DNA of 64,000 nt from Psammoneis japonica (GCA_008632985.1 QPGO01000008.1:786979-850978); one strand, 5' to 3'. Counted from the stretch's first letter, positions 4,800 to 63,175 are shown. Numbers and translations are program-made. The notes: a model not told the origin generated them from the letters alone.

Positions 4800-5528
4800 T
4801 GCGTCGCTCTTCGCTGTGAAACAGTTTGACTTGGCTGTTATCTCACTCGTCGGTGATTACTGCGTAGACAAGTCAAATACGAGGACAACGAGAGCGATCT
4901 TGTACCAATCAATCCAAGATGGCGTTCCTTACAGTCGTCGACGAGAGGGAGACGGGCAGTCGCTTTTAGTCTACAGGTACTTGCGCCGTGACAAGTGACA
5001 GGATATTTAGAACGATGCATCAGCATTCTAAACTTATAATTACATGACATAGACTGAGACTTGCGAAGGCGCGATATGGGGAACGTGCCAGAAATTGTTA
5101 GAAACGTCAAGAGGGGAAGTCCAACTGTGAAGGAGTTGTGAGGCTGGTGTTTTTCACCTGGGGGGCGAGTATTTGAAAAGGAGGAAGAGAATAGGGAGTT
5201 CCACTGGTGTTCTACCGTACGCGTCGGTGACATCCCGGCGAAGCGACACACAAAAAGACGGGAAGTGCACAGACCCTTTTTTCAAAAACGTTTTTGATCG
5301 GGTACCTCCGGGTCGTTTTTACACGTGGAAGCCTTTCTCAGCGCCTTTTGCGAGGCGACACACCCCTAGATTATGAGTCTCTTTGTGTGTCGCCTTACTG
5401 GAAACTGCGTTGGATTTAACGCATGTAGAAGTTGTGTGAATCTCCACGATTTTTCAAAGCACGGCGCACAAAAGACGGCAATGGCAACGCACAGTTCATT
5501 CCCCCTGTGACCAGCATTGCACGAGACA

Positions 5529-8500
5529 ATGGGCCGACCATGAGGCATCAAGAACAAGGCGAACCACAAAGCCGGTGGCGACAGGCGCTCGGTGTCTTTC
5601 CGACAACAAAAGTCAGATGACAAGAGTGAGAAAGAATCTGCGGCTTTGCGTTTGTTTGAGAGGGCACAACAGCGCACTGGTGAGACGCATCTCACCAAGC
5701 AGCAAATTCGAGAGAAGCATGCCGAAGCACTGGCAGCCGCCATGCCGGCCATCAAAGCAGTGTTCGAGCACCCCTCCAACAGACATGGCATGGCGGGAGT
5801 GAAGGAGGAGGATCCGTCCTTGTTGGGTCATGCTGGCGCGGCCTCAGGATTTTGTGGGGAGCACGATCCCTTTGATGCTGGTTGCGACGACGACATGCGC
5901 CGGTTTGCTTCCAAGACATCTGCGACACCAGTGACCGGCCACCATGACTCATGCATGCCTCCACCCGACACTCCATTGCACACGTGCCTTAAAAAAATCC
6001 AAAAGAAAGTCGCCACCAAAGAAGGAAAGATTGTGTCGATGCTGAGAGATGGGTGCAAGTGGATCCCTCCACCGTGTGATCCATTGAGCAAAGGATTCGG
6101 TGTGTCCCCAAAACCTGACAACTGGCATCTGGGGAATTGTTGGGTGCACATTTGGGTGCCACATGTAATGTTCCCAGGCCATGTTGGAAAAAAGCCTGCT
6201 TGTCCATGTTGCGGCAGTGACAACACCGAGAGCAAAGGGCTTCATTGGCGACCTCACGTTGAATGGAACAGAACAGTGTGGGTTCTCCATCACCACATTG
6301 ATTGTCTCAACTTAATGTGCTCTGGCATTGACGAGGACGGTCACAGTTCAAAATCCTTTGCCACTGTTGATCCGAAACACTTGTCAACGCTGCCAACAGA
6401 AGTGGCGAAACGGCATGATTTCCTGTCCTGTCATCGTGGTCCCGGTGTGGCCACGTCCATGGCTTGTTGTTGCGCCAATCTCACCAATCATTCAATGTTT
6501 GCTGGTGCTTTTTCGAGTGTGGTCAATGAGCTGCGCTCCCTGGACTGTACATTGCAACAAGTCAGCTGCCACCGCACGTCATTGGATTGGGACCCCTGCG
6601 AAGTTGTTGGGCACGTCGGTCAGCCGGTTGTTCCATGCTCAGCCTTCGGGGAGCCAGGAGAGCACAATGGCACTCGGCTTTCAAGTGGCAAGGTTTCTCA
6701 AAGCTTTTCTGTCTTTGTGGAAGATGTTCATGAGGAACACATGCAGTGTTCTTTTGAGCAGAATCAAGATCAACAGATTGCTGTCAATCTCACTTTCCAA
6801 TTCTTCAACAAAGTGCAAGCATGTCTTTCGGGTGGGGAGCAAGTCAAACCATTTGTTGCCTGCTGCAATGTCATGAATGGAGCTGGAAAGGTTGCTGCCA
6901 GCCTTCCTGTGTGTGGAAAAGGGCAGGATGAAATTGAGCCTCTGCTGCAGCGGATCCAAGAAGCTCGAGCAGCTGGAGGTGCACCGCCGTTGGCCAGAGT
7001 CGACACTGACAACCCAAAGGCCGATGAAAAAATGTTTCAGAGAGTGTTCAAAGGCATGCTCAGTTTGTGACGTTTCCCATTTTACTTCTGCAGCGACCCC
7101 TTCATTCCACTGAGTGCAAACTTTGATGTGTTGTCGGCAGAGCTTCTACACGGCGTTAAGGAACATCGACCAAAAACTCAGCTGCCACTGCTGAGCATGC
7201 CCAGAGATTCGTTTCTTCATTTTAGAAGCAAGGACGATGCAAACGCCCATTGTGGAGAAAGTTGGGAAGCCATCATGCGCCCAGGCGATGATGAGCATGG
7301 GAAGCATTGTGGGCTGGACGCAGAATGGACGAGAGGCCTGACAGTTGAAGAAGTGGCAGATCTTCTTCAGACGTTGTTTCAAGGTTTCATGCCAGTTGTG
7401 CACGACATGCATGCCATGGGAGGGGTCCCCGAGTGGCTCAAAAAGATTCTTGAGTGTAAGAAGCTTGTCCCTTGTGGCCGGCAGATTGGAGGAGACCTGA
7501 GCCGGCTGCCAAAGGGGCACGGCATGTCAACAAGTCGTCACCTGGAAATCGGCCATCTTGCAACAACGTGTGACAACGGCTCCACAAGTGTCAAAGCGCT
7601 TGCAGAGCGCATTTTGAACGTCACATTGGGCAACAAGGAGCACGGTCAGAGCACAGATTGTCGAAGAGCATCTGCGTCTGGAGCCGCAGACGATGAGCTG
7701 CTGCAGCATGCTGCGATGGATGTGTGGATTCATGGATTGCTTGCAGTTGAGTTGCTTCACCGGGTTCAAGCAAAGCTTGGTGGTTTGCACATGCCACCTT
7801 CGCCAGAGCTCATGAAGCCGGGACGCAATGTAGATGTCACAAAGTCCAACGGAACAGTGGTGGCACGTGGCCAGGTGGAGCGCGTGGGCAACTGCAAGGG
7901 TCCAGGCGAAATGACAAAGTTTGGAGGCGAACCAGTGGGCAAAGGCAAAGTCACAGTTGAGATTGAAGAGGTGTGCTTTTCCAACTGGAAAGTTCCCTTT
8001 GGCTTTTCGGATGAGGACAGCGTTGAAGCAAGCTGCGGGAAAGGGGCCAAGCTTGGCGATGCATTCAGCCAGAGTGTCGACAAGGTGCTGTTGTTGCAAA
8101 CAAGCCACCTGCGCATGCCACCGCCCGAACCAGAGAGTGAAATTCTTGACTGTTTTCCAACCAAGCCAACCGACACCAATGCTGACAGCAACAATCTTGG
8201 CACAGGTCAAGAATCCAAGCAAGACCACTTGGACGAGGCCGGCGGTTCGGAGTCACCTTCCCAAGCCTCTGAATCGCCTGGTGGGAACAGCAGCGGCGAC
8301 CCTTCCAAATCATCGGAGCCAAAGCATCCTGGAACTGCTGATGAAATCACAGACATGTTGTTGGCAGCATCTGCAGCACAACTGGACAACACAGACGAGA
8401 TCCGCAGCAGGTTCAAGAACGATGTCTTTCACATCATGGATGCCGTGCCAGTTCCTCGAAATTGTCCCGTCGGACCTGCTTTGCACCAGCTTGCAACAGA

Positions 8501-11213
8501 GGCAACGTTCATCAGGAATGAGGCTGACCATGCAGAGGTTCAAGCCGCGCTGGCAAGCAAAGGGGTCGCGGACATCGCGGGTCATGAATGCTGGAATCGG
8601 GAATGCCGCCGGACTCGATCCGCGTGTCGTGCCCTTCGGCCAAGCTTCACGCCATGAACATCCACAACGCACACAAGCTTGTGCGCGAGAGCGAAAGACG
8701 GGTTCCAGTCCTGGGTGGGACTCCGTGTGACATTGGGCCCGCAGAATTCTGCGTGCGAGCTCCGCAGCACGAGAATTTAATTGATGGATGTGTTTGTCTT
8801 CAACATCAAACAAACGGCCAAGTTTGTGGTGCAATTGTGCCTCTTGCCACTGGACGTTTTTGCAAATGCGCCTGCCCCACGCGATTCTCAAGACATTGTA
8901 GAATCGCGCTGCAACAAAAAATGTCAAAAGTTGTTGGACGGATCGCTCAACAAGTGCACCGTAAAATGACACAAAATGTCGAAAAAATCACGTAGAAATC
9001 TGCGTGCGCGACACACGACGTGATTCAAAAAACTGTCGATGTCACAGTTCAGCAGTGCGAGGTCCCACCTGGACCTGGAACTCGTCGAAACATTCAAGCC
9101 ATGCTGCAATGAAGACATCGACAGTTGGTTCGAGACATTTGCTCTTGAGGCTGAGAGAGGGTGGTTCGAGCCAGTTGACGGCGTGCCACTGTGTGACAAC
9201 GGAGGGGCAGACACAGATGGCCTGCAACTCTGGTTGCGACACCAAGGAACCTGCGGCCAGAGAATTTCCACCAGAAACTGTGGTCCCTTGTTGTTGCTCA
9301 GGCAATGAGCATTGAGACAGCACATCATCTGATGGTGCTTCGAACGTTCCGGTGCAATGTCAGCACAGGGATGCGGCGGTGCGGTGAGCCGGACGTGGGG
9401 CACCCTTGCCTTCATCATGTCGATCAGTTGCAGTGGTTGATCCAACGCATCTTTGACGCAGTGGTCTTGCCCACCCACAAGAGTCTGTCTGAGTTTGAGC
9501 CCACTCGAAGGGACTGGGTTGGTGTTGGCAAGTGCGCTGCAGAGAAACAGTGTGCAAGCTTTTCTCCATCACCAAAGGCGGGCATGACGCGATCGTTGAC
9601 TCACATGGCTTCAAAACAAAGTGTTCTCACACCACCTTTGCCACATGGCACCAAGGAAGATCGTCTTGTCTTCAAGCGTTGGGCGAAATCCTTGAACGGG
9701 AAACCAAAGCAAACCGACTGGGAGGCCTTGCTCGTGGAGCACAAACGAAAGGCGGATGGTGTCACTGCATTTCCGAAGGTGATGTCACTGACAAAGTCCG
9801 AATGGGAACACAACAAAGCGAGGGAAGAAATCAAACAGGCCCAATTCCAGATGAAAGGAGACTTCGAACCAGTTGTCGCGAGTTTCCGCAGACAACGTGC
9901 ACCCACACCAGCTCCATTCAGGCGCAGCGACAAAAATTCTGGTGCCACCACAAAGCCCTCTGTCTTCGTTCCTCCGCTGCAAGCGCCGCACCAAACGTCA
10001 GAGGTGCTGTCCAAACAATCCAATGGAGCCTGTGCTTGCCGCAAACAAGGCTGTAAATTCATGGCGCGAGAGTGTGGAGGTTGGACCCAAAGCGGGTGCC
10101 GATTCTACGGGAGTGCGTCTCGTCGCCCTGACAAGGACAAGGCCACTTCTGTCAACCCTGCTCGAGTGTGTGCATGGACCGGCCTGTGCAATGCAGGAGT
10201 GCACGTCTGTCAGGGGTGTCAGAAGCTCTTGCATGTTCTACGGAGACAATGGAATTCTGACGCTACCCGATTGGTGCAAGGAGACTGCACCAGCATTAAA
10301 GAGGAAGCGACGCAACAAGATGAAGCAAGTCAGCAAGCGACGGAGAACACTTCAAATGGAGATGGACAAATGTGAAATGGCCCTCGGCGAACAGACTTGG
10401 GATGTGGCACTTGAGGCCAATGAAACTCAAGCAATTGTCGATCGCGATAACTTTGCCTTGGTCGTTGGGCGTGACAGCCTGCGCCTGCCCTTTGGCGTGA
10501 TGCCAAACGGCGCCAGCTTGTGTTCGATGCTTCGTTCCGGTGAGCTCATCGATGACAATGTCGTCCAAGGATGCACACACTTGTTGCGACAGAAATTCAA
10601 TGTCCGAGTGCCAAGCACCCACTTCTGCTCCCACTTGCATGACAACAGCTGGAGCTCGGTGGACCGATGGGTGAAAGCAATCACGAATGACGACTCCAAT
10701 TGGCTTGCTTCATCCGAAATTTACACTCCAATTTTTTCGGGATCCAGAACCGGGGGGCACTGGTCAAACTTCTGGACTGATCGGTCTTTTGACAAAACAA
10801 GAACAAAAGTCGATGAAATCATGGTGTGTGCCGACAGTTTGACCCCAGATCGCATCGCACAGGATCTCCAGCGATTGCTTGAGGCAGGAAGCTCCCCGAT
10901 AAGACCGTCTAGGGCGGATGCTGAATGGGTCGTAGCGACAAGCCCAAGACAAGCAGGGTTGGATTGCGGCGTACATTGTTGCATCAAGCATGCTGCAATT
11001 ATGAGAGCTCATCAAGAAGGCACTCTGCATTCACATGATCGGGCGATTGCGCAAGCCAAGGTCACTTTTCGACTCTCCGATTCGTACAGTGTCGAGCAGT
11101 GGGGGCAGATCGGCCGACGTCACATGCTAGAAAGTCTGTGCCGGGGTGATGTCGACCTGGAGGATGAAGCAGTCAAGGCAATGGGAGTGAGCATTGTTCT
11201 ACCGGAAACATGA
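5529..11213 (+). pseudogene. Multidomain transposase-like gene: AT-hook, Cys-rich Zn module, DUF6729-like putative DDE core interrupted by a DEDDy 3'-5' exonuclease, C-terminal Ulp1/C48 SUMO protease
   Basis: MGRP*G at 5529 (CGA->TGA); CPCCG; NVMNGAGKV...ARVDTDNP; exonuclease GLDAEW...GRQIGGDLSRL...SVKALAERIL...LQHAAMD; KNDVFHIMDAV; RHQGTCG/ENFHQKL across a frameshift; Ulp1 LIDDNVV...GGHWS...ADSL...PRQAGLDCGV. Disabled by a stop, frameshifts, a MITE and Tyr loss. Confidence 0.7.
8697..9086. mobile_element. 390-bp MITE inserted in the transposase gene, 4-bp TSD GAAA
   Basis: Left end GACGGGTTCCAGTCCTGGGTGGGAC matches the reverse complement of the right end (GACGAGTTCCAGGTCCAGGTGGGAC); GAAA at 8693-8696 and 9087-9090; removing it restores the frame LVRESE|TFKP. 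Confidence 0.85.
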
Positions 11214-12300
11214 TTAGCACACAACAACACACAAACAACGAGTGCATAACATGAACGTACCAGATCGCAATTGTGACATTAATAGATCCTCTGCTCGGGG
11301 GTTATATCGACCTTGACGATGAAGCAGTCCAGGCACTGAGAGTGAGCGGCATTCTGCCAAAGACACAATGAGCACACAATACATAAACCACACGTACCAG
11401 ATCACAATCATGAGAGGACATCAAGATGGCACTCTGCACTCATATGACCGGGCAATTGCAAAAGAATCAAAATGGTGGGGTGCTTTCGAATCTCCGGCAC
11501 TCTTCACTCATACGACCGGGCAATTGCAAAAGAATAGGGTACTTTCAACTCTCCGATTCGTACTGTTGTCAACCAGTTGGGATGGATCGGTCGACGTCAA
11601 ATGCTATCCCGGGGTGACATCGACCTGCCACATACACATGATGAAACATTCTAAACAAAATTTAGAGTGAGTTCTGACGGCACCGCAATGAGCAGTTGAG
11701 GGCGAGCACTATTCTACCGGCACCATCACATGCACGTACCGGATCGCGTAGAAAATCGCTTTTCACATTTTGGGCTCATTATTCTGCCTGCACTATAATG
11801 AGTAAATGAGAGTGAGTACTGCGGTATTCTACCGGCACCATAATGTGTACATAAATAACACACAATCACATGAACGTACCGGATCGCATGAAAAACCGTG
11901 TGTTTTTCTGCTGGCACCAAATGGGTAATTGAGAGTGAGCCCTCTTCTGTCAGCAACCATTGTGAGTACCTAAATAATACATAATCACAAGGACGTACCG
12001 GATCGCATAGAAAATATATTTTCACGTTTTGGCCTAGAAAAACGGCGGGCTCTTGCAAAAGAGGACATGGATTGGTACCGTGTCAAGCTCTGATTCGTAC
12101 TATGTCGAGAAGTGGGAACAGATTGGCCGACGCCAAATGCCATCATCAACCTAGATGATAAAGCATTCAACAAAATCGAGAGTGACTAATATTCTGTCGG
12201 TACCATAATAAATACATAAATGCACAAACAACCAACGCATAACATGAACGTACCAGATCGCACAGCAAATCGTTTTTCATGTTTTGGCCTACAATAATGG
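11214..12300 (+). repeat. Degenerate repeats derived from the 3' end of the transposase gene
   Basis: Core ACGTACC(A/G)GATC(G/A)C recurs near 11255, 11392, 11735, 11875, 11994 and 12248; 11410-11630 recopies the Ulp1 C-terminal coding sequence (GTLHSYDRAIA versus GTLHSHDRAIA). Confidence 0.7.
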
Positions 12301-12371
12301 CAACGCCGCATTTCTTTCGACTTCACCGACGCTATCACCATTGAGTTTTTGAAAATGGTAGACACGTCTCA

Positions 12372-12400
12372 GAGTATTTGAAACTTGGTTTCAAATACTC
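12372..12400. other. Perfect 13-bp stem hairpin near the right end of the transposon
   Basis: GAGTATTTGAAAC-TTG-GTTTCAAATACTC; the first 12 nt of the arm also occur near the left end (5167-5178). Confidence 0.75.
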
Positions 12401-15103
12401 CAAAAACAAAGCACGGCAACATCGTGGGAGTCTTTTGTGTGTCGCCTTCGATTCTCCTGGTTACTTTGAGTCTAATTGTGTGTCGCCTCGAGGCCTCTGT
12501 AGAATCTATGGTACGTGTTTCTCTCGGTGTGGCGACACAGAAAAAGACCCCCATGACAGACACACCTCCCAGTTGTGAAGGGCCCGCTGTTGCAAAGGAG
12601 GGTCTTTGCGGAGATTGGCTCCCGCGCTTTTCACTCCCGTTCGTGATTCGAGGACAAGACACGTGAACGAACTGAAACCGCAACAACATCAGTTTTGCCA
12701 ATCTTTCATGCCGTCAGCAGTCCTGAATGCCTGAAACTTCCGAGACCAGCTCTGGATTGGAGGCTCTCACACACTGCTTGTCATGACCATGATGCAGAAA
12801 GCTCCTTTCACAACAATTCGAAAAAATCATTTGAAGCAACCAGCTGTTTGGGCATCTCACAGCATTCTTTCCAAGCCCGCCTGTTGCCTGAGCTCTGGTG
12901 TCATTGCTGAATGCAAAGTCATCCTCCTGCACAGCAACCTTCGTGCTCTGTGTGTTTGACAAACATTCTGCCTGCTTCTTGGCAGTCAAGAATTCACAGG
13001 AGGTGTGCAACAAGTTGAGAGCAGCTCCTTCAATGAAAAACCCATGGATGCCATCAACCCAAAATGAGGGTTGTGTGAGCTCAGTGTCACCAGTGCAACA
13101 ATGCACAAGGGCACAAAACAGCCAGCTTCTTCTTGCAGAGCCATCAACAAGCTTCTGCCTTGGCTTTGACTGGGTCAAGGCACAACTGCTTTGTGCTGCA
13201 GGAAACCTTGTGGTGCGCCACAGAAGAGCAGCAGTCGACATGGGGGCACTTTGAAGTGGAGTTGAAGGAGACCACATTGTTGCTGACTGAGGGTTTTTCT
13301 GGTGATTTGTGCCTTCTTCTTGACTCTGCACACTAGATGGCAATGCTCCCAGTGTTCACAGAGCTGCCTGCTGTGGTTTGTTGCCGGCAACATTGAATTT
13401 GTGGATGCAACCAGCAAGAGGGAGCACAAGGTTTGTGGAGAGCATGGGCTGGGTCGTCATTGGAATTCTCAACAGTGCTGAGTTCATTGACAAAGATCAT
13501 GTCCATGGCATCTTTGCTGGCTCAGCAGAAGGAGCAGTGTCCTTGAAGGCTTCCGGAGCCAGCGCATCTTTGTCAAATCAAAAGAGCTTGAAGTGCTGCA
13601 CTGCTGTGTGGGTTTTGGGAAGGCTCATTGCTCCAATTTGAAACATGACAATTGGGGCAAGTGGAAGCAGCATCAGGGCATTGAGCAAGACTGCTCAGTT
13701 TGTTGAGCAGAGGCATCAAAGTCACAACAATCTTCTTGGCCTTGCACTGACGTGTCTTGTTTGGATTCTTGCAAGCGTTGGTGGTTTTGCAATGGAGGCA
13801 GTTGCCACATTTCACAATGCTGATGAACATGTCAAGTTTGCCAGAAATGTCCAAAAATGCACCCGTGTTGGCAACAATTGCTTGCACTTGGAGGAAATCT
13901 CTTGAAGCGGGGGGCACAGCAGCTCTGAGAGGGCAGCCAGGTCATGTTGTCAAGGCAGTCTCAGATCAGCTCGTGTGGGTGCTTGTGCCAAATGAGCAGA
14001 TGATCAAGTTGGGTCATTTTGAGAGCCAAGCAGCCATCTCCTCTCCACAGCATTGATGGACAATGTCACAGGGAGCTTGGAATCAACAGGGAAAATGCCA
14101 AGCTTCTGGAGGTGCAAAAAACTGTGAACATCATCTGTCCAAGCATCAGAGTCATGTGTTGAGGGAGTTCATCATTTGAAGCAGTTCCAGGTGTAAAACC
14201 CCTGTTCCCATCCTTGATGAAACACAAAAGTGGGTGGACGCTCACACACTGGACACCAGCAGTGCGCTGTGCACAAAGGCCTTGAGAAGAGATGTCATCA
14301 CACACACGAGCATTTCAGGCAAAAAAAGCTTTCATGCTCTGACCCAACTTGGCAACGAATCCTCACATGTGTCCAGTGCTGTGGGCTGTGGGGTGCAAAG
14401 AGGATGCATGGTGACAGACATGGTCTTTTTGCTTGCATTTGGCAGTGTTTTTAGATCAAACAAGTTGGCAGGGGGGGGAAAGAAGTTGGCAGAGCACCTG
14501 TGAAGGCATGCAAGGGTGGTGCAGAGTTCAGTGCTTGAGCCACAGCTTTCTCAAATTGTGGCCCAAAGAGTCTTGTTTTTGTCTAGAAAAGTGCCAAGAG
14601 GAGCCAATTTTGCAAAAGGATTGTTGGAGATGTCGTCCTGATTGGTGTGTGGCAAAGTGCCGGGATGAAAAAAGTGAAGAGCATCACCAACACAAGCCTG
14701 CACAGTGTCCTTGCTGTCTGAAACTGCTTGCTGGAGCATTGTCATGATCTGCAAAGAAGACAAGGCCCCAAGCACTTCTTCTGGGGTCCACCTGGTGCAC
14801 TGAGGAAGAGTGGTGCAGTGCAAAAGATGAGGCCAATGATGCCACTGACATCCTGGGTGTGCTTGGCTTGAGAGACAATCAGCTCTTGAAGGATCTTCTG
14901 ACAAAAAATCAATGGCACCAGTGCAGAGACACCAGGAGGAGTGAAGCCATCCAGAACATCCACAGGGCCAGAGAGACCAGCAGCATGAAGCTGGTTGAGG
15001 ACAATGTGGGCATTTGCATCAAGTTTTGTGGGGGTCAAAATGGACAGAGATGGTCTTGATCTTAAGAAGATTGTCCTCTTTCTCAATTTTAGTCAGAGGG
15101 CAT

Positions 15104-15379
15104 TGACAGAAATTGAAGGCAAATGGCAAGAATTCAAACAACAACTCCTCACTGCTGTCTAAATGGCAGATGAGTCTCCACTCAGAGACCGTTGCAGGAG
15201 CCGAAAGACGTGCAAGTCGGCACAATCGGGCTGCTGTTGTCATTCTTGTGAGCCTTGTGGCTCGAAAGCAAACTGCATCGCGCGCGAACGCGCGGAACTG
15301 AAGCACACAAAACTGTGCACGGCAAACTAAACAGCGCGCGACATTTCGCGCGCACCTGAATCCTGTTCAAATCCTGTCA
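15104..15379 (-). repeat. 3' LTR of Copia element 1
   Basis: Direct repeat of 21902-22177, same length, differing at 11 dinucleotide sites by manual alignment. Confidence 0.95.
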
Positions 15380-15389
15380 CTCCCCAGTT

Positions 15390-18300
15390 TGCTTGGGGAG
15401 CCACAGAAACAGATTCGACTTTGGATGGAATGAAGTTCCAGAACATGAGGGGGCGGAGAAGGTCCCAGATTTGGGAGCAACCCCAATGCTTGCTGAGAAT
15501 GTCAGCAGGGTTGCGGGAGCCTTCGATGAAGTGGAGCTCAAGGCAACCAGAGGCAATTGCCTCACGCACATGGTGGAACAACAGTGCGGTGTGTCGCTTG
15601 TGTGGCTTGGAGTGCGGGATGGTGGCACTGTCTACAACCGACTTGTTGTCACCGAACATGTGACTGACATTGCGGATCGGGACGCCAAGGTGGCGCAGGG
15701 TGATGCGCAGGTCGACAATCTGCTCGACACAAGTCCTTGCGGCAACAAATTCAGACCCGCAGGTGCAGTCTCCACAGTGGCTTGCTTCTTAGAAAACCAA
15801 TCAGCCGGGAATTTGTTGAGGAAGTGGAGCATTCCCATGACAGAGCGTCCGGTGAGCATGCAATGGTGCAAGTTTGCATCGACGTAGTGGGTGGCAGTGA
15901 CGCACTTGCCAAGGGGCGGTGGAGCGTCCTTCGGGATCATCTCTTCTGCTTCGCCACACATGGAATGCATCCATTCACAGGCCGGAGCAGGGAGATCCGA
16001 ATGGTCGGGCTCTTCCGTGCGAACGCGGAGAGCGCCGTGTCACACATTGGAGAGGTGCCCACAGATGCGTTTGGCACGATCCAAGTGGCCTTGACGGGGC
16101 GCAGCTCGGAAGCTAGAGAGTGACATGACAGCCGTGGTGATGTCAATTCGACCAAGGGACACTGCCCATTGGAGTGAACCAACAAGAGACTGGAACTTGT
16201 GAATGCCATCGGGCCCCAGCAGTTTGGAAGTGTCCAGTTCGGGGTGGTCACCCTTCTCCAGAGGTGACAGGGCGTTGGTGGTGGGTTTCTCCCCAAACAG
16301 TCGGGTGCAGCTGTCGACCATGCGCTCGATGTACTTGCGCGGAGACAGGCACAAGGTGCCGTCGGGATCCTGGGAAAAGTCGCAACCCAGATGGAACTCA
16401 ATGGGTCCCGCACCCTTGAGCTTGAACTTGTGCTTTTCCGTGAGAGTGTCGACAAAGGATTGAGGGTCCTTCATGGCAATGGCGAGGTCATCCACACAAA
16501 TGGCAATGCACTCACAGTGGTCGCCGTTCCTGCGCATCCAAATGTTGGGTTTGGCGCGGCAGGGGAAGAAGCCTTCAGCTTGCAGGCAGTCGGCGAAGCA
16601 CTCGTGCCAGCGGAGACCGGAGCTGCACAGTCCATGCAGGGCCTTGTGGATGACAAGGATGTGTCCTTCGAGTTTGCCAAATTCGGGTCCGGCTGCAATG
16701 TGGAACTTCTCCTTGGTGGTGGCTTCAAGGCAGGCATTGCCAATGTTGGTGGCCCATGTCTCCAACTCGTTGAGTTCGGCCAGGAAAATCATCAGCCGAA
16801 GGCCACGGAGGGAGACCACTCCGGAGTGGACACTGTCGATGGGCACGTCCGTGAGGTGCCCATCGGCTGCGAGTTGTGCCTTGTGGCGACCGTCGTGTTT
16901 CACATCGCACACTGGGTGCACTCGGATCTTCTTGTGTCCTGCAGGAGGAGTGGAAGACTCGAAGGGCCCGCAGTCATGGAAGACTTCGTATTCCCCGAGT
17001 TGGTCCATCTCGAGATTAGTTGCGTCTCCCCATTTGCGGTTGCCGTTGCGTTCGTCCAGTGACATGGCATGTTTGCAGTTCTGGGGAACTTCGCATCTGC
17101 ACTTGTAGCGAGGTGCAGTGTGGAAGGAGTGAAGCTTGGCTTGGTTGGCCATGCGAAACAGCTTCTTCTGGCGCCTCGCGATGATGCGGAACCGCTTCCA
17201 GCCATCAGTGTCGAGAAGTCCATTCTCTTGTGCATGGATGGCGCAGGTGACGGGGTCGTCCTTGGCGATGATGGCAAGAGGCTCGGACGTGATCTCCCCA
17301 CTTTCCCATTCAAGCATGATGTTGTAGCTTGAGCCTTTCCAGGTTGGGTCATGAGGCTTCAGAGGTCCTTCGTGTGACACGATGCGTCGAAATTTCCAAA
17401 CAGCAGTGTCTTCGTCTTCTTGCTCAATGTGATTCATGATGTCGTTGCAGGCAAGGACTTCCTCGCATTCGTCGTTGTTGACAGAGCAGACGAACTTAGT
17501 GAGCTCGGGATTGCCGTTCACTTTCCATTCGTGGTCTTCAATGGCCTTGACGATGCAAGCTCTGTGGCGTTGTCCGTCCTCTTGTGGCTGCATGAGGAAG
17601 GTGCGTCCGATGATGTCTTGCGGATCAAAAACTGGCATCTTTTTTTGTCGTCATGGCGAGATTTGATGATGGGTTCAGGTGGCTCCCCATCAGGAGGATC
17701 AAGACGCAGGTTTCGAATGGCAGGATCGGTGGCAGCGGATCGTACGTTGGACCGGCAGAGGATCTTCTGAGTCTCGTCAGAGAGAATCTTGAAGGTCATC
17801 TGGTGGCCGACGTGCTCAGCAATGCCAACAAAGCGTCCATGCAACTCACGGGATTCGGACAGCCAATCGGAGTCATCAAGGTGGAAGCACACGGGTTCCC
17901 ACCAGTGAAAGCGAAGCAATGGGCTGATGTCAGGGTGGAGCCAGTGAGAGTCTCGAGGGGCGTGTGCCAGTGGAGACGTGGGGACGCTGCATGGTTGAGC
18001 ATGAAGCACACGCACATGAGCGCCAGCAGCCATTGTGGGCAGGCGAACCGAAACGATCCATGACAGTGTTCGCCATGCACTTCACGGTCTGGCATCAACG
18101 CTCGGCAAAGTTCTGGTGTTGCCAGTGAGGCTCACTTTGCCAGCTGGAGATGAAGAGGGCTCGTAGAATCCCGAGCACCTTGTTGCTGATCTCAACTTGA
18201 GCACGGTCGCTGATGAGTTTGGACGGGGCACCATGCTCATGGATCTGATCCTCGAGTGTGTTGACAAACTCTTTGTCCGTCTTGGTGCCGCAGATGTCAG

Positions 18301-20958: not shown

Positions 20959-21901
20959 GGTGGACAAAAGTGGTGTCAGGACAAGCAATTCTTGTTGGGA
21001 AGCGAAGGCAGACTTGAGACTTGGGTGAGAATGGACTTGACTTGAAATGGACTTGACTTGAAATCTTGAACTGCCTTAAAATCAGAAGTCGCCGGGCTGT
21101 GCCATCCCGTTCGTTGTCAAGTGCTAAACTTCCCATCCGGTTCACAGAGTTGTGCCGGCACGTCCGAACCCGCAGCCAGCGGCGCTTTGGGTTGCTTGCG
21201 AGTGGAGCAGCGGGTTGCAAACCCCTGCAGGTGAGCTGACCAGAGGTGGACAAGACCCCCGAACCGTTCTTGTTTTGTGTCGGTTGGATTTCCCGATCAG
21301 GCTGGCCAGTTGACGCAGGCACCAGGCGCTGTGGACGAACGAACAAACGCGGGAAAACACCCTCACCCCAACGTGGGCTGCAATCACGGCTGCTTGCTCT
21401 CACAGTCGTCCTCGTGGACCTGGTGGGAACTGTGGAGCACCAGCAGTCTGGGGTGGATCAGGTACAATGGACTCAGTGTGCTTGTAGAGTGGCAGCAAAA
21501 CCGCAGTCCGAAGAGTGGGTACAAGTTTCTTTTTTGGCCGTGAAGATGTGCACATGTGTGCATGTCTTCAGCGACGAAGATCCTTGAACATGTGGGGTTC
21601 TTGACCGTTAACCGATGAATGGGCATGTCAAGGGATGAGGATCAAGGACAGACTTGGACATGACCGTTGATGCATGTCTTCAGCGATCAAAGGTGGCACA
21701 ATCAATCCAGACATCCAGCATCAAGGAGACTTGACGGTGACGTTAAATTCCTGCCGATGCCTGGCATTGAACGCGCGCAGACTTGCCGATGCATGTAGAA
21801 TGTATGCGGAGGTCCACGCAGAATTGAGGTGGCGTCGTCGGTAAATCAGCGACGACGATGGCGGTTGCTCAATGGGTTGACAATGAGCAAGACTGTCAAT
21901 C

Positions 21902-45100: not shown

Positions 45101-46410
45101 GCACAAATTGCAACAAAGCCAGCAGAAGATCTCTGGGAATTTGGTCTGCACAAAATGGGCTCTGTGACAAGCAAGTTGTTGCAAGAAGCACTGGGCACAT
45201 TTTGCAGTCACACAGATTGGCACTCAGGCAAAACAAAAGACAGTGCTGCAGCACACACAGAAGAAACCCAGGGTTTGTCATTGGGTGAAATTGATGGTGG
45301 CAACAGCACAGATGTGGGTTGGCTGTTAGAGCATTGCAAAGAAAACAATGCCCAAGCCAACACAGCAGGGTGTCACACATTTGACAGCACAATGTTGTTT
45401 GCCCCCAGTGTGTTTGTTGTCAAAGAGAAAACACATGAGGGAGTTTTGTGGGGCACAAACTTGTGCACAGAGAAAGTGCAACATTGTGGGAACAAAACAG
45501 AGCCAATGGAGCAATGGGATGCTGTCAAGAAGGTGTGCACAAACAGCACACAGCACAGATTTGGTGGGCTGTCAGATGCCAAGTTGCTTGCCTTGGTTTT
45601 GCAGGTGGCAGAGAACAGACACAGAGTGCTTGGAGACAGAGCAAGAAAGGGATGCAAAGACCAAGCCATTGAGTTGGAAACCATCAAACAGCTTGACTTG
45701 GCAAGGCAACAAGAGCAGCAACAGGCAACCAAGTCTCCATCTGAGTCAACAGGGGAACAACAAGTGACTGCCAAATGCAAAACAAAAGCTGGAAGTCAGA
45801 AAAGTGTTTTGCAAGAATCCATTGGTCTTTTCATCCATGTCTGCATTTGCATGTTGCCTTTTCTGCTGAAAAAGCACATGACAGCAAAGCACTGGATTTT
45901 GTTTGGGTTTGTGCAAAAAACATTCAATTGCATTGAGGGTCACACACAATCAAATCTCTCCACCACATGTGTTCATGCCACACATGACAATGAGCTTTTT
46001 TGGCATTGCACAAATTGTGAATGAGACATCAGTGTGCCCTGGATTCCTTGCACTTGCGGCAACCACTCTTGGGCCACAAGTGGAAGTCAGCAAAGTGTTT
46101 CATGAGAATCCACCAATCTTTTTGTGCGTGTTTGCATTTGTGTGTTGCCTTTTCTGCCACAAAAGCACATGACAGCAAAGTGCCAAATTTTGTTTGGGGC
46201 CACATGCAAAACATTGAGCTGCATTTGGGGCCATGCACAATCAAATCTTCCTGTTGCACGTGTGTTCATGTCATGTGCAACAATGAGCTTTTTCAGTGAT
46301 GTGTAAATTTTGGCATGAATTGTGAATGAGACAGCAATGCCTCTCATGTGAAAACACTTCTTTGGGCCATTTTTGGTTCTCAGTGATTCCCACAAGTGCA
46401 AGAAATCCAC
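42139..46410. repeat. Four copies of a ~250-350 bp non-coding repeat: + ~42139-42500, - ~42530-42840, + ~45790-46030, + ~46050-46410
   Basis: Shared core AAAAGCACATGA(C/T)(A/G)GCAAA...ACATTGAGCTGCATTTGGG...CAATCAAATCTTCCT...GAGCTTTTTTGGC read in all copies; the second copy is inverted. Confidence 0.8.
42841..44465. repeat. 9-bp minisatellite, about 180 units, consensus GGCAAGTTT / GGTGAGTTT
   Basis: Directly visible period-9 array with one phase slip near 43925. Confidence 0.95.
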
Positions 46411-51400: not shown

Positions 51401-54400
51401 CCCAAGTGTGCCACGTGCCAATGTGGTCGCATGACTTGTCATCCAACCAGAGCTGCACAAACTGAGAAGGTTCCCAGTTGGGATCAATCTCTCAATGCTG
51501 ATGTTCTTCATCCTGGACAAGTGGTTGCTGCAGACCAGCATGCATCCTCCATTCAAGGTTGTCCATTTGAATCTCATGGGAAGACCAAAGAGGCAGACAA
51601 ATGTGGTGGCAGAGCTGTTTTTGTTGACATTGCATCCGGCAAGGTGTCAGCTCATCATCAAGTTTTGTCTGGCTGTTTCAAGACTGTCAAAAGAAATGGC
51701 TTTCAAGAGGGAGGCTGCTTCTGCAGGCATTTCCATTCAATCCTGCCAATTGGATGGTGGCATGTTCATGAGCAAAGAATTCCTCAAGGAACTTGAGGAG
51801 AAAGGACAGGGCAGGAAGCTTGCTGGTGTTGGTGCACACCATCAGAGTGCAATTGCTGAGCAAGCAATTCATGCTGTCACCAAAAGAGCTTGGACTGTGA
51901 TGTTTCATGCTGCAGTTTGATGGCGGATGCACTGGAGATGGATTTGTGGCCCATGGATGTGAGTCATTCTGTCCACTTGTGGAATTTGACCCCATGAATG
52001 GATTTTGATGGATTGTGTCCCAAACAAGTCTTCACAGAGTGAAAGTTTCTTCAAGTTCAACCCTCACAAATTCAGCTGTTTGGGGTTGTCTGACCTGTGT
52101 GTTGGATCCAACATTGCAAGATGGCAAGAAAATGCCATGTTGGAAAGCCCAAAGTTGCAGAGGACAATTTGTGGTCATGCATCTGTCCATGTGAGTGACG
52201 TTGGTCAATTGGAAACCTCAAGAGTGGTTCTGTGTTGCCTCAATTCCATGTTGTCTGTGACAATTGGTTTGAGATGGTTCATTTGGATGATGAGTGCAGA
52301 CCACCAAGAAACTGGTTGGATCTCCTCACCACTTCAAGATGTCACATGGAGAATGATGAAGGATTGCACCTGCCTCCATTGTCAGATGATTGGCTTGCTG
52401 CTGAAGAATTGCATGATCAACATGCTGAACAGGAAGAGTTGCAGAGGCAACAAAGAGCACAAGTGTCAATGCCAATGGAAAAGAGGGAGAGGACACCTGG
52501 ATCCCCTGGAGCACCTTCTTCTTCTCAAGGACAATTCAGAATCCAGTGCTCCCAGACGGTTGAGTGTTTCATGCTCCAATGACATTTTGCCAGATCTTCC
52601 ATTGTCTCCAGATTTTGTTCACAATGAAAATGCTCCTCCAAGTGTTGAAGCTCCTTTGGCTCCAGCTGATGCAACAGAGGCTCAAGAGGGAGACTCTGGA
52701 ATTCCCAGATCTCAAGATGCACCTTTGGTTGCTGATCATGACAACCATTTCCCAGAAGCTCCAGATGCTTCAACTCCGACTCTGACTCAGACATGCTCTG
52801 GAAGAACAGTTTGTCCTCTAGAACATCATGGCTGTGAAGGGACTGACAAGCATGGTTGTGATGGACATGCCCTCAAAGGCATGGCTTCTTTTGTTTCAAA
52901 TTTTACATGTTGGCTCAGGTCTGGTTGCAGGACAGTGGAATTTGCAAAGATGCACGAGATGTTTGCTGACCTTGATGGTGATGGCATCAATGCTGCATGT
53001 CCACTGTCAGCACATTTGTTGGATTCTTTTGCAAGCAAGAAGACTCACAATCCTGATGCTCCTTTGTGTCATGAAGTGATGGCAGGACCATGTGTGGAAG
53101 AGTTCAAGAAAGCTGTGCATTTCAAGATTGTGACTTGATGCAATGCAATTCATTTGCTCTGGTGCAACGTGAGTCGGTGCAGTTGAGTGCAAATGTTTTG
53201 CCTGGCACTTGGGCACTTGTGATCAAGAGACACCCTGATGGATGTCTCAAGAAGTTCAAGGCATGGTTTTGTGTGCAAGGGAACCATCAACAAGAAGGAA
53301 TTGATTTCTTTGAGACTTGTGCTCCAGTGGTCCAGCAGAGCATGGTTCAGTTGCCCACATGTGAGTCTGTCAAATCTGCATGGATTGGCATCTTGTCAAG
53401 TTGACCACACCCTTTTTTGCTCAGGCAGACAAAGAGGATGTTTGTGTTGAATTGCCTGGGCTCTTTGAGACAGAAGATGAAGGTGGCTGTGCACATCAAA
53501 GCTGAACAAGAGCTTGTGTGGATTGCAACAAGCCGACTGCATGGTTCCAGCATTTGTCCAAGGGTCTGGAAGAGGTCAGATTGCACTCTAGCAAGAGTGA
53601 TCCATGTTTGTTCATCAGCAAAGACGTTGTTTGTCTTGTGTGTGTGGATGATTGTTTGTTCTTTGCAAAGATCTTACAAAATTGACAACATTGTGAGTGA
53701 ACTCAAGGCCAACAGTTGTGAACTTGATGTCAAGGATGATGCAAATGGTTTTCTTGGCATCAACATTGACAGGGATGATGAGGCTGGGACTCTCCATCTC
53801 ACTCAAAAGGGTCTCATCAAAAAGAGTGTTGCTGCTGTGAATGTGAAGGATTGTCACATGAAGAAGACTCCAGCCAGCTCAACTCCTTCAGCTGCCAACA
53901 TGCCGATGGTTCCAAGTGAGTCAAATCATGGAGCTGCACCAGCATCATTGGCATGATGCTCTGCTTGGCCTCCAATGCAAGGCTTGCATTCAACATGCAG
54001 TCCACAGCTGTGCTGGCTGGGTTCATGCACAATCCCAAGAAGAGCCATGAGGAAGTGGTCAAGCAGATTGTTGGGTGTCTTCAAGGCACAAAAGATTGTG
54101 GTGTCAGTTTTGCTGTCTCCAACAGCTCAAGGTTGGATTGTTGTTGTGATGTGAATTTTGCTGAACTTTGAAACTGCAAGGACCCACAAGATCCTGTGTG
54201 CATCAAGATTTGGTCTGGCCACTTGTTGACCATTGGTGGCAACCCATTGATTTGGGCTTCCAAGCTGCAGACCAAGATTGCGTTGTCCACACTCAAGGCA
54301 GAGTGTGTTGCCCTGTCTCAGGCAATGAGAGTTCTGCCACTCATGAGAGAGCTTGTCAAGGAGGTCTCCTCTTTGATGAGTGCTGATCAGGATGATGAAA

Positions 54401-59698: not shown

Positions 59699-60700
59699 TC
59701 ATGACTGCTCTTGCACTTGCTGCTGTGCCAATTGGAAAGAAACTCTGCCAGTTTGCACTGTTGGGGCAGTGGGAAAGGCATCACCCTCGCTGTTTTCCAT
59801 TCGTTCTGTGGCAGCCTTGGAAGCCTTTTCTTGAACATTGTTTTGCAAAGTGTTGAATTGATCAGGCAACAAGGAACCATCCTCGCAGCAGCCTTGGTCT
59901 GCTTCATCATCCAAAACTTGCTGCAACTTGACATCAAAGATTGCATCACCATTCCAAGTGGCCACCATTTGATCCAGCAATTTGTTGAGTTTTCTTCGAT
60001 CAAAGGGACTGGCTGGCAGAGGCCCCAAACCAGAATCCACAAAGCCTGACTTTGGCGGAACAACAACACGATGCACGCCCCCAACTTTCATGGTGTGCAA
60101 GCCCTCGTCCAAGCCTGCAACAGTTCGACCATTTCCATGTTTCAACAGCATCCTGTTGGAATTGAGTTTTTCCTTGTTCTTGTTGGGGAGTTTCACATGA
60201 GCCGTGTACGAGACAGCAACAAGTTGACCATTTTGAGGGGATGGTCCAGCACCTGGTTTCAGTTCAACGTGCTTGAGACCCAACGGCAGCTTGAAGAGGG
60301 TAACGCCGCCTTCCTCAGCTGCAGTTGCTTCTTGAGCAGATGCCATCTCTGGTTCCCATGCTGCCGCTGTCAAGAGACCAACAGCGGATGCTGAGTCAGA
60401 AACAAAATTTCAACGAGAGCACACAGGCAGCTTCTTTTTGGTCACTGGTGATGGTTGATGTTTTGGTGACTTGGCTGAAAAAGATGCTGCCTCGCAAAAA
60501 AGTGAGGCAACAAGCACAACGAAATAATGTGATGAGCACATTGCTCCCATTTCTCAAGCTGGTTGTGGCAAGTCTTTGGCACAATGTTTCCAACGCATCC
60601 TCCTCGATGCAATGCAGCTCAATGGTGATTGAACTGATTCCTGTTGTGCTTTTGGAGTTGAGCAGAGATGCACGCAGAAGACAACAGTGACAACAATCAG
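59699..60700 (-). pseudogene. FKBP-type peptidyl-prolyl isomerase, probably a disabled copy
   Basis: GLKHVELKPGAGPSP...GQLVAVSYTA...GNGRTVAGLDEGLHTMKVGGVHRVVVPPKSGF...IFDVKL; core frame open, but N-terminus frameshifted and Y->H/C changes present. Confidence 0.8.
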
Positions 60701-60801: not shown

Positions 60802-61300
60802 TCATTGCAGCGTTCCATCCAAGGCACTTTGCATGCACATCCCAAATGAACTCTCAAGCTTGTTGATTTGTTCCAGCCTTTCATTTGTCAAGGAGCATGG
60901 TTGACCTGCCATTTGTTTTTGGCAATTGTGTCTCTGAAGGTGAGCAAACTTTCCAAGAGAACATGCACTTGCACTTGGCACAAGTGCGTGTCCATGTTCT
61001 TTGCCAAACTTCTCAAGTTGTTTCTTGACAACGCTCACCCCATGATTGTTCATGTGCATTCCATGTGAAGCCCACCAAGTTTGGCTGCTTCATCCAGTCT
61101 TCCAACATTGATGCTGATGCCAGCAGTGCTGTTTGAGACATGCAGTGCTGCATCCTTTGGGTGTCGACCCAACGACCCAGTTTGGGAATGAACCAACAAC
61201 ACACAGGCATGTCAGTTTTGTTTCACAAACTCTCATGAGGCATCCACACAGCTGCTTTGTCAAGACTCAGGCAACACTTCCCATGTTGTCTTTTGTTCCA
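60802..61300 (-). pseudogene. Helicase-associated (HA) domain repeats, fragment
   Basis: PKLGRWVDTQR...LVGFTW and LEKFGKEHGHALVP...LGKFAHLQR...LTNERLEQINKL match the HA pattern. Confidence 0.7.

Positions 61301-61361: not shown

Positions 61362-61394
<33 letters not shown>
61362..61394. repeat. (CT)n microsatellite
   Basis: About 16 uninterrupted CT units. Confidence 0.95.
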
Positions 61395-61398
<4 letters not shown>

Positions 61399-61711
61399 TC
61401 ACTGAGGCTCTCTGAAACAAGGCAACACCAAAAGTGCCATCACAACCATGGTTTCCTTCTGATGGTGCTGGAGTCATCTCAAGGATCAAGTCTGTCTTAT
61501 CTTGTGATCTTGCCCATCTTGCCCATCTTGTCACATCTTGGCACAGAGCACATCATCCTCACCTGGGCAAGTTGATGTGAACACCCGATTGAAGAAGCAT
61601 TGGAACAAGTGCAACCCATGCTTGGGAAATGGTCTGTGTTCATTTCTGCATGTCATCTTAAGATGGATGCCTTGTGCCAACAGTTTGTCAAGGAATGTGC
61701 AATGCCGCTGC

Positions 61712-63175
61712 ATGACAAGTCAAGAAGGACCTCTTTGCAGCTCTGAAAAAATGCAACTTTCAGTTTTGTGCCTGCAATCCACCGGTGGGACCAACAATGA
61801 TGCAAGGACATTGGACCCAACACTCGTTTTGCCAGTTTGAGCTTTTGGGCAAAATGCTGTTGCAATCAGTTGAGAATGATGGGCAGGGTGCAGGACCAAT
61901 GATTGAGTTGAGTGAATCATCAGCATTGAAAGCATGGTTGTGCATGCTCCTGGCAATGCACCCCAGTCTTGAGTGCGATCAAGACATTGCACATTTCCAC
62001 ACAGTTTCAGCACATGTGTGTTTCATGTCCCACCACCAATCTTGCAATGCGAGTCCATGCTGTGTGCATGCCTTGGGGCAAATCAGACAGCACAATGATG
62101 AAAGCCTTTGTGACAATGCTGATGGGATTTGCTCCCCACAGCAGTTCTCAAGCGGCGCTTCACTGCACCTCCTAAAGTTGCCTCCTGACCCACCGCCACA
62201 CCTGGGGCCATTTTCTTTGTGGCAACTTGCCTGTGTTGCTTCAGTTTTCATCTTTTTTTTTTTCCATTGTGTTGGACCTTGAGCTCCGACAACCTCCCCT
62301 CCCCTCCCGCCCCTTCTTCCCTCAAGTGTCAACATCATTTTCAACCCAATCATGTGCGATTGCTTCTGTGGCCCTGCACTGCCCTTCTCTGACACCTCCA
62401 ACAGCCCCCCTCACATTTCTCCGTCCCACGACCTCGTCCCCCACGAGACTGTGCTCCCGCAAAGCCAGTCATGACACGAGCAACAGCCCCGTGTCACCAC
62501 CTTTCTTCTGTGACCCCCCCTTCTGCACCTGCCACAGCCCTGCTCAATGGAGCCAATCGCGGCACCTCCAACAGCCCTTTTTTTTGCAACTTTCCCCCAA
62601 GTCACAACCTCCACTGATGCCCCCCATTGCCCAAGAACCTTGGCCACCTCATCCCAAACCAGCACCCCTCCAATCATGCCCCCGAGCAGCTTCCATTGCT
62701 CCACAATCACAAAAAGTTCAACTCAATGCAAGACACCAACAATGCTCTTCCTTCTCTTTCTTTCCAGTGCTCCATCATGTCTTTCCTCCAAGACAAGTCC
62801 CGCTGGCTGGCCTCCTCTTCAGGACACTGCTGACAGCTCTCAAGATTCTCAGCCCCTCCTCACAACTCCTCCTGACAAGTCGAGAAGGACCTCTTTGCAG
62901 CTCTGAAAAAATGCAATGTTCAGTTTTGTGCCTGCAATCCATTGGCGGGACCGACAACAATGCAAAGGACATTGGACCCAACACTCGTTTCGCACCAATG
63001 ATCGAGTCGAGTGAATCATCAGCATTGAAAGCGTGGTTGCGCGTGCTCCTGGCCACGTATTTTAGTCTTGAGCGCGATCAACATATTGCACATTTCTACA
63101 CAGTTTCAGTACATACGTGTTTCATGTCCCGCCACCGATCTTACAACACGAATCCGTGCTGTGCGCATGCATGCC
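61712..63175 (+). repeat. Duplicated ~300-370 bp segment (~61712-62090 and ~62873-63175)
   Basis: Both start TGACAAGTC(A/G)AGAAGGACCTCTTTGCAGCTCTGAAAAAATGCAA; the right copy lacks ~60 bp internally and retains TA/CG that the left copy has lost. Confidence 0.9.

Follow-up and report, generated by a model that had tools for sequence, protein, structure and literature searches.

How does a eukaryotic chromosome lose almost every TpA dinucleotide from tens of kilobases of DNA while the genes on either side keep theirs? This question is raised by a 64,000-nucleotide stretch of the Psammoneis japonica assembly (GCA_008632985.1, QPGO01000008.1:786979-850978), here called the window, in which positions are counted from the first letter. 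An original prediction, made from the sequence alone, had described a ~57-kb block in which TpA (hereafter TA) nearly vanishes and had attributed this to a process converting TA to TpG or CpA (TG or CA). We find that a mutational process of this kind has acted on the region, a conclusion that we hold with high confidence; the two long terminal repeats (LTRs) of a Copia-type retrotransposon, duplicated segments and the replacement of conserved tyrosines by cysteine or histidine all bear the proposal out. As an explanation of the whole, we consider it probable that a domain of a diatom genome underwent saturating, TpA-specific DNA hypermutation by deamination of the adenine of TA in silent chromatin.

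TA-poor DNA occupies two stretches, 5427-10899 and 12513-63057, in which the observed-to-expected ratio (o/e) of TA per kb is 0.00-0.20 and 0.00-0.23, respectively, compared with 0.45-0.74 in the left flank. Between them lies a TA-normal island of ~1.6 kb at 10900-12512, so that the purge described earlier stands, at ~56 kb in two stretches, but its continuity does not. Almost throughout the block there are 0-11 TA per kb, against 31-48 in the first 5 kb of the window and 41 in its last kb, and TG plus CA rises from ~1.0-1.2 times expectation outside the block to 1.4-2.7 times within it. We pooled the counts for purged DNA over 5430-10890 and 12520-63050 (55,992 bp) and compared them with the flanks and island together (7,982 bp). 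TA occurs 188 times in the purged DNA (o/e 0.05) and 345 times in the reference (0.61), and CG 1,378 times (0.40) versus 461 (1.06). TG, in turn, is found 6,073 times (1.65) versus 568 (1.19), and CA 5,968 times (1.80) versus 605 (1.18), while in purged DNA the o/e of AA is 1.22 (1.05 in the flanks), that of AT 0.83 and that of TT 1.26. These counts confirm the earlier description of TA as common in the flanking genes and near-absent in the block, with TG and CA over-abundant, and its estimate of about four TAs in 5581-7020 proved exact (5990, 6166, 6313 and 6548). At the flank ratios the purged DNA would be expected to hold 2,196 TA and 3,614 CG; the deficits of 2,008 TA and 2,236 CG, 4,244 in all, are roughly matched by an excess of 3,748 TG plus CA. 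Because the combined deficits are close to the excess, the composition looks like one in which the palindromic dinucleotides TA and CG have both been emptied into TG and CA. The G+C content (GC) is 49.4% in purged DNA versus 46.8% in the flanks.

The passage from normal to purged DNA is abrupt, each edge being sharp to within 100 bp. When every TA is listed, the densely spaced TA of the left flank end at 5426 and those of the right flank begin at 63058. Counted per 500 bp, TA falls at the left edge of the first stretch from 23 outside (4927-5426) to 0 inside (5427-5926), and at the right edge of the second stretch there are 0 inside (62558-63057) and 21 outside (63058-63557). At the left edge of the island, 2 TA in the purged interval 10400-10899 give way to 18 in 10900-11399, and at its right edge 27 in 12013-12512 give way to 0 in 12513-13012. 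The outer left edge lies just beyond a transcribed gene and the outer right edge ~260 bp ahead of a gene start; the domain fills the space between two normal genes.

Both LTRs of a retrotransposon are identical upon insertion, and the Copia-type element in the block therefore carries a record of what has happened since. Its LTRs (15104-15379 and 21902-22177) are now 94.6% identical over 276 bp. All 15 of the 276 positions that differ are transitions, and all 15 fall within pyrimidine-purine (YR) dinucleotides, that is TA, CG, TG or CA, with none elsewhere. Sorted by class, one site is TA in both LTRs, five are TA in one and CA or TG in the other, four are CA facing TG, two are CA facing CG, and 20 are CG in both; the LTRs thus differ at 9 TA-derived sites, the rest being the 2 CpG sites. 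Since LTRs that were identical at insertion now differ at TA-derived sites, this comparison shows that the changes are DNA-level mutations that arose in situ, after insertion. A model in which each TA converts independently with probability p and on a random strand, with 2p/(1-p) = 5, gives p of ~0.71 and ~12 ancestral TA per LTR, and predicts ~3 CA/TG sites against the 4 observed. Per site, conversion amounts to ~71% for TA and ~4.5% for CpG, TA being ~27 times faster. The A:T-to-G:C spectrum is enriched for TpA, as had been anticipated, with all non-CpG differences between the LTRs located there.

Duplicated sequences gave a second view of the same changes. Of the mismatches in three pairs of duplicates within the block, double differences in which CA faces TG account for 44 of 116, 36 of 64 and 34 of 55. 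One segment is locally duplicated, a first copy (61713-62071) lying inside the block and a second (62873-63170) across its right edge. In the pair 61895-62071/62994-63170, CG (12 mismatches) or TA (7) in the edge copy corresponds to TG or CA in the block copy. One site of this duplication is a T run, at 61950-61965 versus 63050-63066, where the edge copy reads GTATTTTAG and the block copy GCACCCCAG, with T/C differences along the whole run.

At the protein level the footprint is a loss of tyrosine. As had been reported, two open reading frames (ORFs) of the block, 5592-7070 and 7128-8657, contain no tyrosine at all, and the claim that conserved tyrosines become cysteine or histidine held in the Copia reverse transcriptase (RT; 12 of 17 columns), in the relic of an FKBP-type isomerase gene (4 of 6) and in an ORF aligned with its closest homologue, P0241 (15 of 19). 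Compared with 40 homologues, the RT keeps 3 of its 17 conserved Tyr columns, the others holding 8 Cys, 4 His, 1 Trp and 1 Phe. Other conserved residues are largely retained (Gly 30/31, Phe 13/13, Trp 8/8, Leu 30/32), and four losses of Arg, to Gln, His or Cys, are a CpG signature. The FKBP relic keeps one conserved Tyr of six, with 2 His, 2 Cys and 1 Asn at the remainder, and opposite the 19 Tyr of P0241 the ORF at 5544-7067 has 9 His, 6 Cys and no Tyr. Codon context follows the same lines: in 13 pairwise alignments, which are summed and non-independent, none of 164 retained Ile/Met codons is preceded by T and 122 are preceded by C, and T precedes 51 of the 97 changes from Ile/Met to Val.

Relatives of these proteins are not short of tyrosine, contrary to a possibility that the original prediction had left standing. 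Among 120 RT homologues the median is 4.4% Tyr and the minimum 0.9%, versus 0.7% in the window's Copia RT, and 34 homologues of ORF 5544-7067 have 1.7-7.0%. Conversion of TA to TG or CA never yields TAA or TAG, and yields TGA solely from TAA. Stops make up 2.63% of codons in purged DNA versus 3.98% in the flanks, and those in purged DNA are almost all TGA. The ORFs do keep their frames, as had been pointed out, but this is no sign of function: because the conversion creates no stop codons and TAA and TAG are nearly gone, open frames need no selection.

Both strands were struck equally and without tracts. TG and CA follow one another along the block in random order (same-neighbour fraction 0.500 versus 0.500 expected, z = 0.0), and the TG and CA labels show no clustering and hence no sign of processive action on a single strand. 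CpG varies more widely, with an o/e per kb of 0.02-0.96 across the block and of 0.02-0.2 in 38-59 kb. In the young Copia element the CpG o/e is 0.74-0.96 but the TA o/e 0.07-0.23, whereas 38-59 kb has lost both; CpG decay is a separate, slower second process overlaid on TA loss and varying with the age of the segment. We also compared the bases flanking the residual TA with those of 22,727 TA in 78 unmutated loci, and the flank background gives the same order. TTAA is enriched 3.5-fold among the residual TA and CTAA/TTAG 3.1-fold, and ATAT (0.06), ATAG/CTAT (0.09) and ATAC/GTAT (0.13) are depleted. These contexts are suggestive of TA within ATA or TAT as the best target, and some of the residual TA may be new mutations.

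Read contigs from two runs of one study, X1 and X2, were compared with the window over 3501-23500. The X1 contigs, built from exact 31-letter words, have a depth of 60.1 in the flank. They match 12540-15126 with 2 differences (depth 64.6), 22416-23500 with none (68.5) and 10554-11000 with none (79.3). Since these matches hold 0-2 differences, the purged sequence is what the reads say, including where the depth is single-copy and where the island begins on its left. On repeats, 17,825 X1 contigs differ from the window by 854 transitions versus 104 transversions. Among the 40 best-supported differences, 9 have TG or CA in the window versus TA in the contigs, 4 sites are double differences of TG versus CA, and 7 have TG or CA in the window versus CG. 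Run X2 looks RNA-like owing to a spliced contig; it gives next to no cover over 5502-23500, which was not used as evidence of silence. The suggestion that the process acts on transposon-rich or duplicated DNA fits the transposons in the block, which also holds relics of cellular genes. A dependence on duplication like that of fungal repeat-induced point mutation (RIP) is not shown: the purge takes in DNA of single-copy depth and leaves out the island with its tandem repeats, although old repeats may be past recognition.

Partial forms of the footprint are present in other sequences. At 20 conserved Tyr columns, P0227, one of the 120 RT homologues, carries Tyr 3 times, Cys 6 times and His 10 times; for P0176, another of them, the counts are 10, 6 and 3. 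The median homologue keeps 95%. In 79 Copia-related metagenome loci the TA o/e spans 0.31-1.02. The lowest value belongs to contig L075 (2,759 bp), which has Cys or His at 48% of the query-Tyr positions, the others having at most 8%; set against its nearest relative, L057, it shows TA changed to CA or TG 52 times and the reverse 9 times. L027 has a TA o/e of 0.35 yet is without the Tyr-to-Cys/His pattern. Because P0227, P0176 and L075 are Copia copies from other sources with partial Tyr-to-Cys/His replacement, sequence comparison indicates that the process exists outside this assembly and that environmental copies are mostly unmutated.

The original prediction knew of no described system with this signature, and here it has been overtaken: a 2026 preprint reports the same in Bigelowiella natans, as TpA hypermutation of integrated DNA of nucleocytoplasmic large DNA viruses (NCLDV) and virophages (Mettrop et al., 10.64898/2026.01.13.699255). 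In the portion of that preprint available to us, 231 of 302 nuclear single-nucleotide mutations in mutation-accumulation lines lie in two regions, giant-virus- and virophage-derived, and 230 of the 231, called from Illumina data, are A to G or T to C and are stated to be all on TpA. The rate is given as ~6x10^-7 per site per generation, ~1000 times background, in some lines only. In the genome as described there, windows in which TpA is scarce and CpA+TpG plentiful form 124 clusters, and 324 coding sequences are poor in TpA, with transposon domains enriched among them. The authors' proposal is deamination of adenine, for which they draw attention to an ADAT2-like protein, and their Discussion notes that ADAR-type enzymes prefer U before the edited A (10.64898/2026.01.13.699255).

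As far as the available portion of the preprint allows comparison, the two cases are alike in that only transitions occur (15 of 15 in the diatom LTRs, with GC up) and that TpA only is struck, giving TpG or CpA by strand (in the diatom, TA o/e 0.05 and AA/AT/TT 1.22/0.83/1.26). In both, the regions are discrete and the contrast strong (diatom edges within 100 bp; ~71% of LTR TA converted versus 0 outside YR dinucleotides), and there is a long-term footprint, TpA being scarce and CpA+TpG abundant in transposon-rich clusters. The hosts differ, one being a rhizarian chlorarachniophyte and the other a stramenopile diatom, and so does the degree of loss, the diatom purge being near saturation (o/e 0.05) against a Rho of 0.45 in the NCLDV region. 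Targets in B. natans are viral, with the large region silent, whereas those in the diatom window are transposons and relics of cellular genes, with no viral genes found. In the diatom TA loss is combined with CpG decay, and mutation is read from the footprint, whereas ongoing mutation was measured in B. natans. The flanking-base effect seen in the diatom (ATA/TAT lost most, TTAA/CTAA least) has no equivalent statement in the B. natans main text as available to us. In Phaeodactylum tricornutum, the part of a mutation-accumulation report that we could consult gives the usual GC-to-AT bias, with CG, CC and TG as mutable contexts (PMC6604790). We found no report of TpA hypermutation in a diatom in a literature search that covered few subscription journals, and the B. 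natans preprint text, in the portion available, is without diatoms.

In fungal RIP, C changes to T, mostly from CpA to TpA, which creates TA and stop codons and lowers GC. The diatom block resembles RIP in its regional, saturating transitions in repeated or silent DNA, its sharp edges, its disabled transposons and the trapped genes that were struck with them, but it is the mirror image: TA is destroyed, GC goes up, no new stops appear (2.63% versus 3.98%), and a trigger by duplication is not shown. We rejected RIP as a class, the removal of TpA, the rise in GC and the fall in stops per codon being the opposite of a C-to-T footprint. The APOBEC and ADAR enzymes of animals are comparable as deaminases that hypermutate mobile or foreign nucleic acid with a dinucleotide preference. 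Their substrates are RNA or single-stranded cDNA, they work no later than integration and they leave their marks on one strand, whereas in the diatom both strands are marked, the changes are post-insertion and DNA other than retroelements is struck too. Decay of 5-methylcytosine at CpG likewise ends in TG or CA and is present in the block (o/e 0.40, with Arg to Gln, His or Cys at CGN), but it leaves TA untouched and, in the young Copia LTRs, lags ~27-fold per site behind the change at TA. Gene conversion bias was also rejected, as it would not be TA-specific and AA and TT are undepleted.

These comparisons allow us to set out a mechanism. The starting state was an ordinary diatom chromosome with transposons, the Copia LTR element and relics of cellular genes, and once these sequences were in place each TA turned to TG or CA, on a random strand. 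The chemical step would be the enzymatic deamination of adenine in 5'-TA-3' to hypoxanthine, read as G; the enzyme would be steered to silent chromatin and serve in genome defence, which is what has been proposed for B. natans. A slower decay of CpG to TG or CA is overlaid on this, in keeping with the methylation of cytosine in silent DNA, and proteins are wrecked by missense (Tyr to Cys or His, among other changes), with no stops created and frames left open. Taken as the mechanism on its own, an adenine deaminase seems to us about an even prospect. As far as is known, tRNA adenosine deaminases always act on the A after U33 of the anticodon loop, a habit that would give a ready origin for a preference for T before A. 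Much more tentatively, diatoms and chlorarachniophytes may share an old, chromatin-reading defence, in which an adenine deaminase, perhaps derived from a tRNA enzyme, erases TpA on both strands in silent domains with a preference for ATA/TAT. If this were true, transposons, integrated viruses and trapped genes would be disabled by missense without one new stop codon, and the system would be a naturally occurring eukaryotic equivalent of adenine base editors and would mirror fungal RIP.

Several points weigh against deamination of adenine in silent chromatin as the explanation. Pfam scans of 381 ORFs of the window, made in four rounds (23, 143, 74 and 141, with some ORFs scanned twice), contained no deaminase family, in agreement with the earlier remark that no enzyme for the process is evident in the window. 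The block is presumed silent, and its targeting through chromatin is what we infer from the sharp edges, from the purging of DNA of single-copy depth and from the island having been passed over; that island, 10900-12512, is repetitive yet spared. Among the metagenome loci, 78 of 79 are unpurged (TA o/e 0.35-1.02), and the one with the signature has it in part. Run X1 has no platform on record and may be the assembly's own data, so it lends no independent support. TA is a palindrome, A to G on one strand being T to C on the other, and a route through thymine fits the sequence equally; at one duplicated site, T to C extends along a T run, beyond TpA alone.

The last of these points bears on an alternative in which thymine is the mutated base. 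A modified T at TpA in silent chromatin (5-hydroxymethyl- or 5-formyluracil, made by a TET/JBP-type oxygenase) would mispair with G; the 5-hydroxymethyluracil of dinoflagellates is found preferentially at TpA and TpC, and 5-formyluracil causes A:T-to-G:C mutations. The palindrome would hide T to C behind A to G, and the T-run change (GTATTTTAG versus GCACCCCAG) would be easier with a thymine-directed activity, although the direction of this single case is indeterminable from two copies. No oxygenase gene was seen in the Pfam scans of window ORFs, and the authors of the B. natans study, in the portion of the preprint available, favour adenine deamination (10.64898/2026.01.13.699255). We regard a thymine origin as unlikely. 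Error-prone repair synthesis of the polymerase-eta type, tied to heterochromatin, had been put forward as a candidate in the original prediction. Polymerase eta makes A-to-G errors at WA motifs (W being A or T), TA among them, but the fit is poor: AA, the other WA dinucleotide, is undepleted (o/e 1.22 versus 1.05 in the flanks), 0 of 15 LTR differences lie outside YR dinucleotides and there is no strand asymmetry, and we consider this origin very unlikely.

It is highly improbable that the signature is an artefact, a possibility raised in the original prediction, in which the DNA has TA but, owing to a modified base, is miscalled as TG or CA in sequencing or assembly. What speaks for this is the provenance of X1 given above, but contigs made of exact 31-letter words at a depth of ~60-80 match with 0-2 differences, which needs accurate reads, and a symmetric modification should also give CG calls, whereas CG is depleted (o/e 0.40). 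The LTRs and duplicates hold fixed, discordant TG and CA states, P0227, P0176 and L075 carry the same signature from other sources, and in B. natans the mutations, in the portion of the preprint available, were called from Illumina data (10.64898/2026.01.13.699255). ADAR-like A-to-I hyperediting of transposon RNA that was then reverse-transcribed and reinserted would draw on the U-before-A preference reported for ADAR-type enzymes in the available preprint text and on the block being partly LTR retrotransposon. An edited template would, however, give identical LTRs, and these differ at 9 TA-derived sites. Both strands are also equally affected (TG 6,073 versus CA 5,968, in random order), and DNA that is not a retroelement is purged too (FKBP, AlgH and phosphatase relics, an element with DUF6729 and single-copy segments), which makes RNA editing scarcely credible. 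Foreign or selected DNA that natively avoids TA, such as an integrated virus, would account for the sharp edges, and integrated viruses are the targets in B. natans as the available portion of that preprint describes them. The chance of this is negligible, given that none of the 381 ORFs matched a viral hallmark family in the Pfam scans and that the content is a diatom-type Copia element, an element protein and diatom gene relics. A Tyr-free proteome is non-functional, and from the LTRs and the duplicates it is clear that the changes occurred in situ.

The left flank (1-5426), with normal TA, carries three genes. A CENP-S-like gene lies at 556-1569 on the plus strand (Pfam CENP-S, 2e-19) and an Mpv17/PMP22-like gene at 2115-2979 on the minus strand (protein atlas lead Mpv17). 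The third is a RING-H2 gene on the plus strand (zf-RING_2, 4e-11) with exons at 3553-3943 and 4147-4799, whose intron (3944-4146; 203 nt, GT..AG) is absent from one spliced X2 contig. The upstream exon, 3553-3943, has a hydrophobic stretch, and the ATG at 4062 falls in the intron. TA is normal in the right flank (63058-64000) too, where 63322 is the start of a ferric-reductase-like gene on the plus strand (PF01794, 2e-7). The frame 62176-63996 is open for 379 codons upstream of this gene, a lone stop at 63313-63315 dividing the two; stop-poor purged DNA therefore makes long spurious ORFs beside real genes.

Inside the block the content is transposons and relics of ordinary cellular genes. The two ORFs of 492 and 509 residues that had been labelled transposases gave no support for that label and belong instead to a DUF6729 plus 3'-5' exonuclease family. 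They are part of a degraded element protein in frames 5544-7067 and 7071-8654 on the plus strand, with 0 to 1 Tyr. These ORFs have 141 homologues at E<=1e-3, P0241 being the best at 52% identity; long homologues carry PF01612 and PF20499, the atlas lead is to PF01612 clusters, and the proteins of the family have 1,400-1,600 residues. This is probably a repeat-element protein. A very high-copy repeat segment follows at 8170-9503, with an X1 summed contig depth of 55,181-86,427 versus ~60 in the flank. The Copia-type LTR retrotransposon (15104-22177, minus strand; RVT_2, 9e-21) is also from a very high-copy family, with a summed depth of 61,467-168,406, and includes an RT ORF at 16043-17650 and an upstream pol/gag ORF at 18085-21075. 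Summed depth over the repeats at 8170-9503 and 14840-22176 is ~1,000-2,800 times single-copy, and the two repeat families therefore make up a large share of the genome's contig set. An older Copia RT fragment is present at 53075-53401 on the plus strand (RVT_2, 9.5e-6).

Degenerate tandem copies make up the TA-normal island (repeat families D1-D16), and what they repeat is the 3' end of ORF 9855-11210 with the sequence downstream of it. For this ORF, which crosses the island's left edge, 7,079 candidates included no homologue at E<=1e-3, and a Pfam search relaxed to E<=1 gave no family; an apparent likeness of its end to a Ulp1-type protease found no confirmation and was set aside. The RNA-like run X2 has one contig that matches the island at 11396-11624, with 0 differences.

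Among the gene relics, a histidine-phosphatase relic (His_Phos_1) lies at 28331-28663 on the plus strand (Pfam 4.7e-4, under the curated cut-off), and a relic of the coatomer beta C-terminal platform occupies two frames at 29995-30666 on the same strand (PF14806, 2.6e-5 and 1.5e-6, both under the curated cut-off). On the minus strand we found relics of a dual-specificity phosphatase gene at 34269-34565 (PF00782, 1.3e-14), an AlgH-like (DUF179) gene in two frames at 35664-36649 (PF02622, 5.6e-9 and 4.2e-6), the FKBP-type isomerase gene at 59702-60409 (FKBP_C, 1.3e-10; best homologue 64% identity, E 2e-67) and a helicase-associated (HA) domain gene at 60805-61089 (PF03457, 3.7e-7). The named top matches of the FKBP relic are all diatoms (Odontella, Thalassiosira, Amphora, Entomoneis and Minutocellus), and because of this the host is a diatom, as the original prediction had thought probable. 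The plus strand of a long tandem repeat at 42500-44650, whose GC skew is strong (0.24-0.32), reads as a collagen-like Gly-X-Y frame (Pfam Collagen, 1.8e-13). Both strands of this repeat are open, and related repeats stand beside it at 42130-42504 and 46041-46409.

To our knowledge, targeted A:T-to-G:C hypermutation of nuclear DNA was unheard of before the 2026 chlorarachniophyte preprint. The signature is thus not categorically new, having been described months earlier in a distant alga; the block in P. japonica is the first diatom case found and is far more complete. TpA hypermutation is therefore not the quirk of one species, and it may be widespread in the protists of the stramenopile, alveolate and rhizarian (SAR) group, including the ocean's main primary producers. 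Diatoms are transformable and offer a second system in which to find the enzyme, and a natural adenine deaminase acting on DNA in a double-strand context, or a thymine modifier, would be of interest to both genome defence and base editing. For diatom annotation, purged domains give long, stop-free and Tyr-free gene-like frames on both strands, and homology searches miss the degraded transposons and pseudogenes within them. Models of how base composition evolves would also be affected by a defence under which GC goes up and TATA-like and AT-rich signals are lost.

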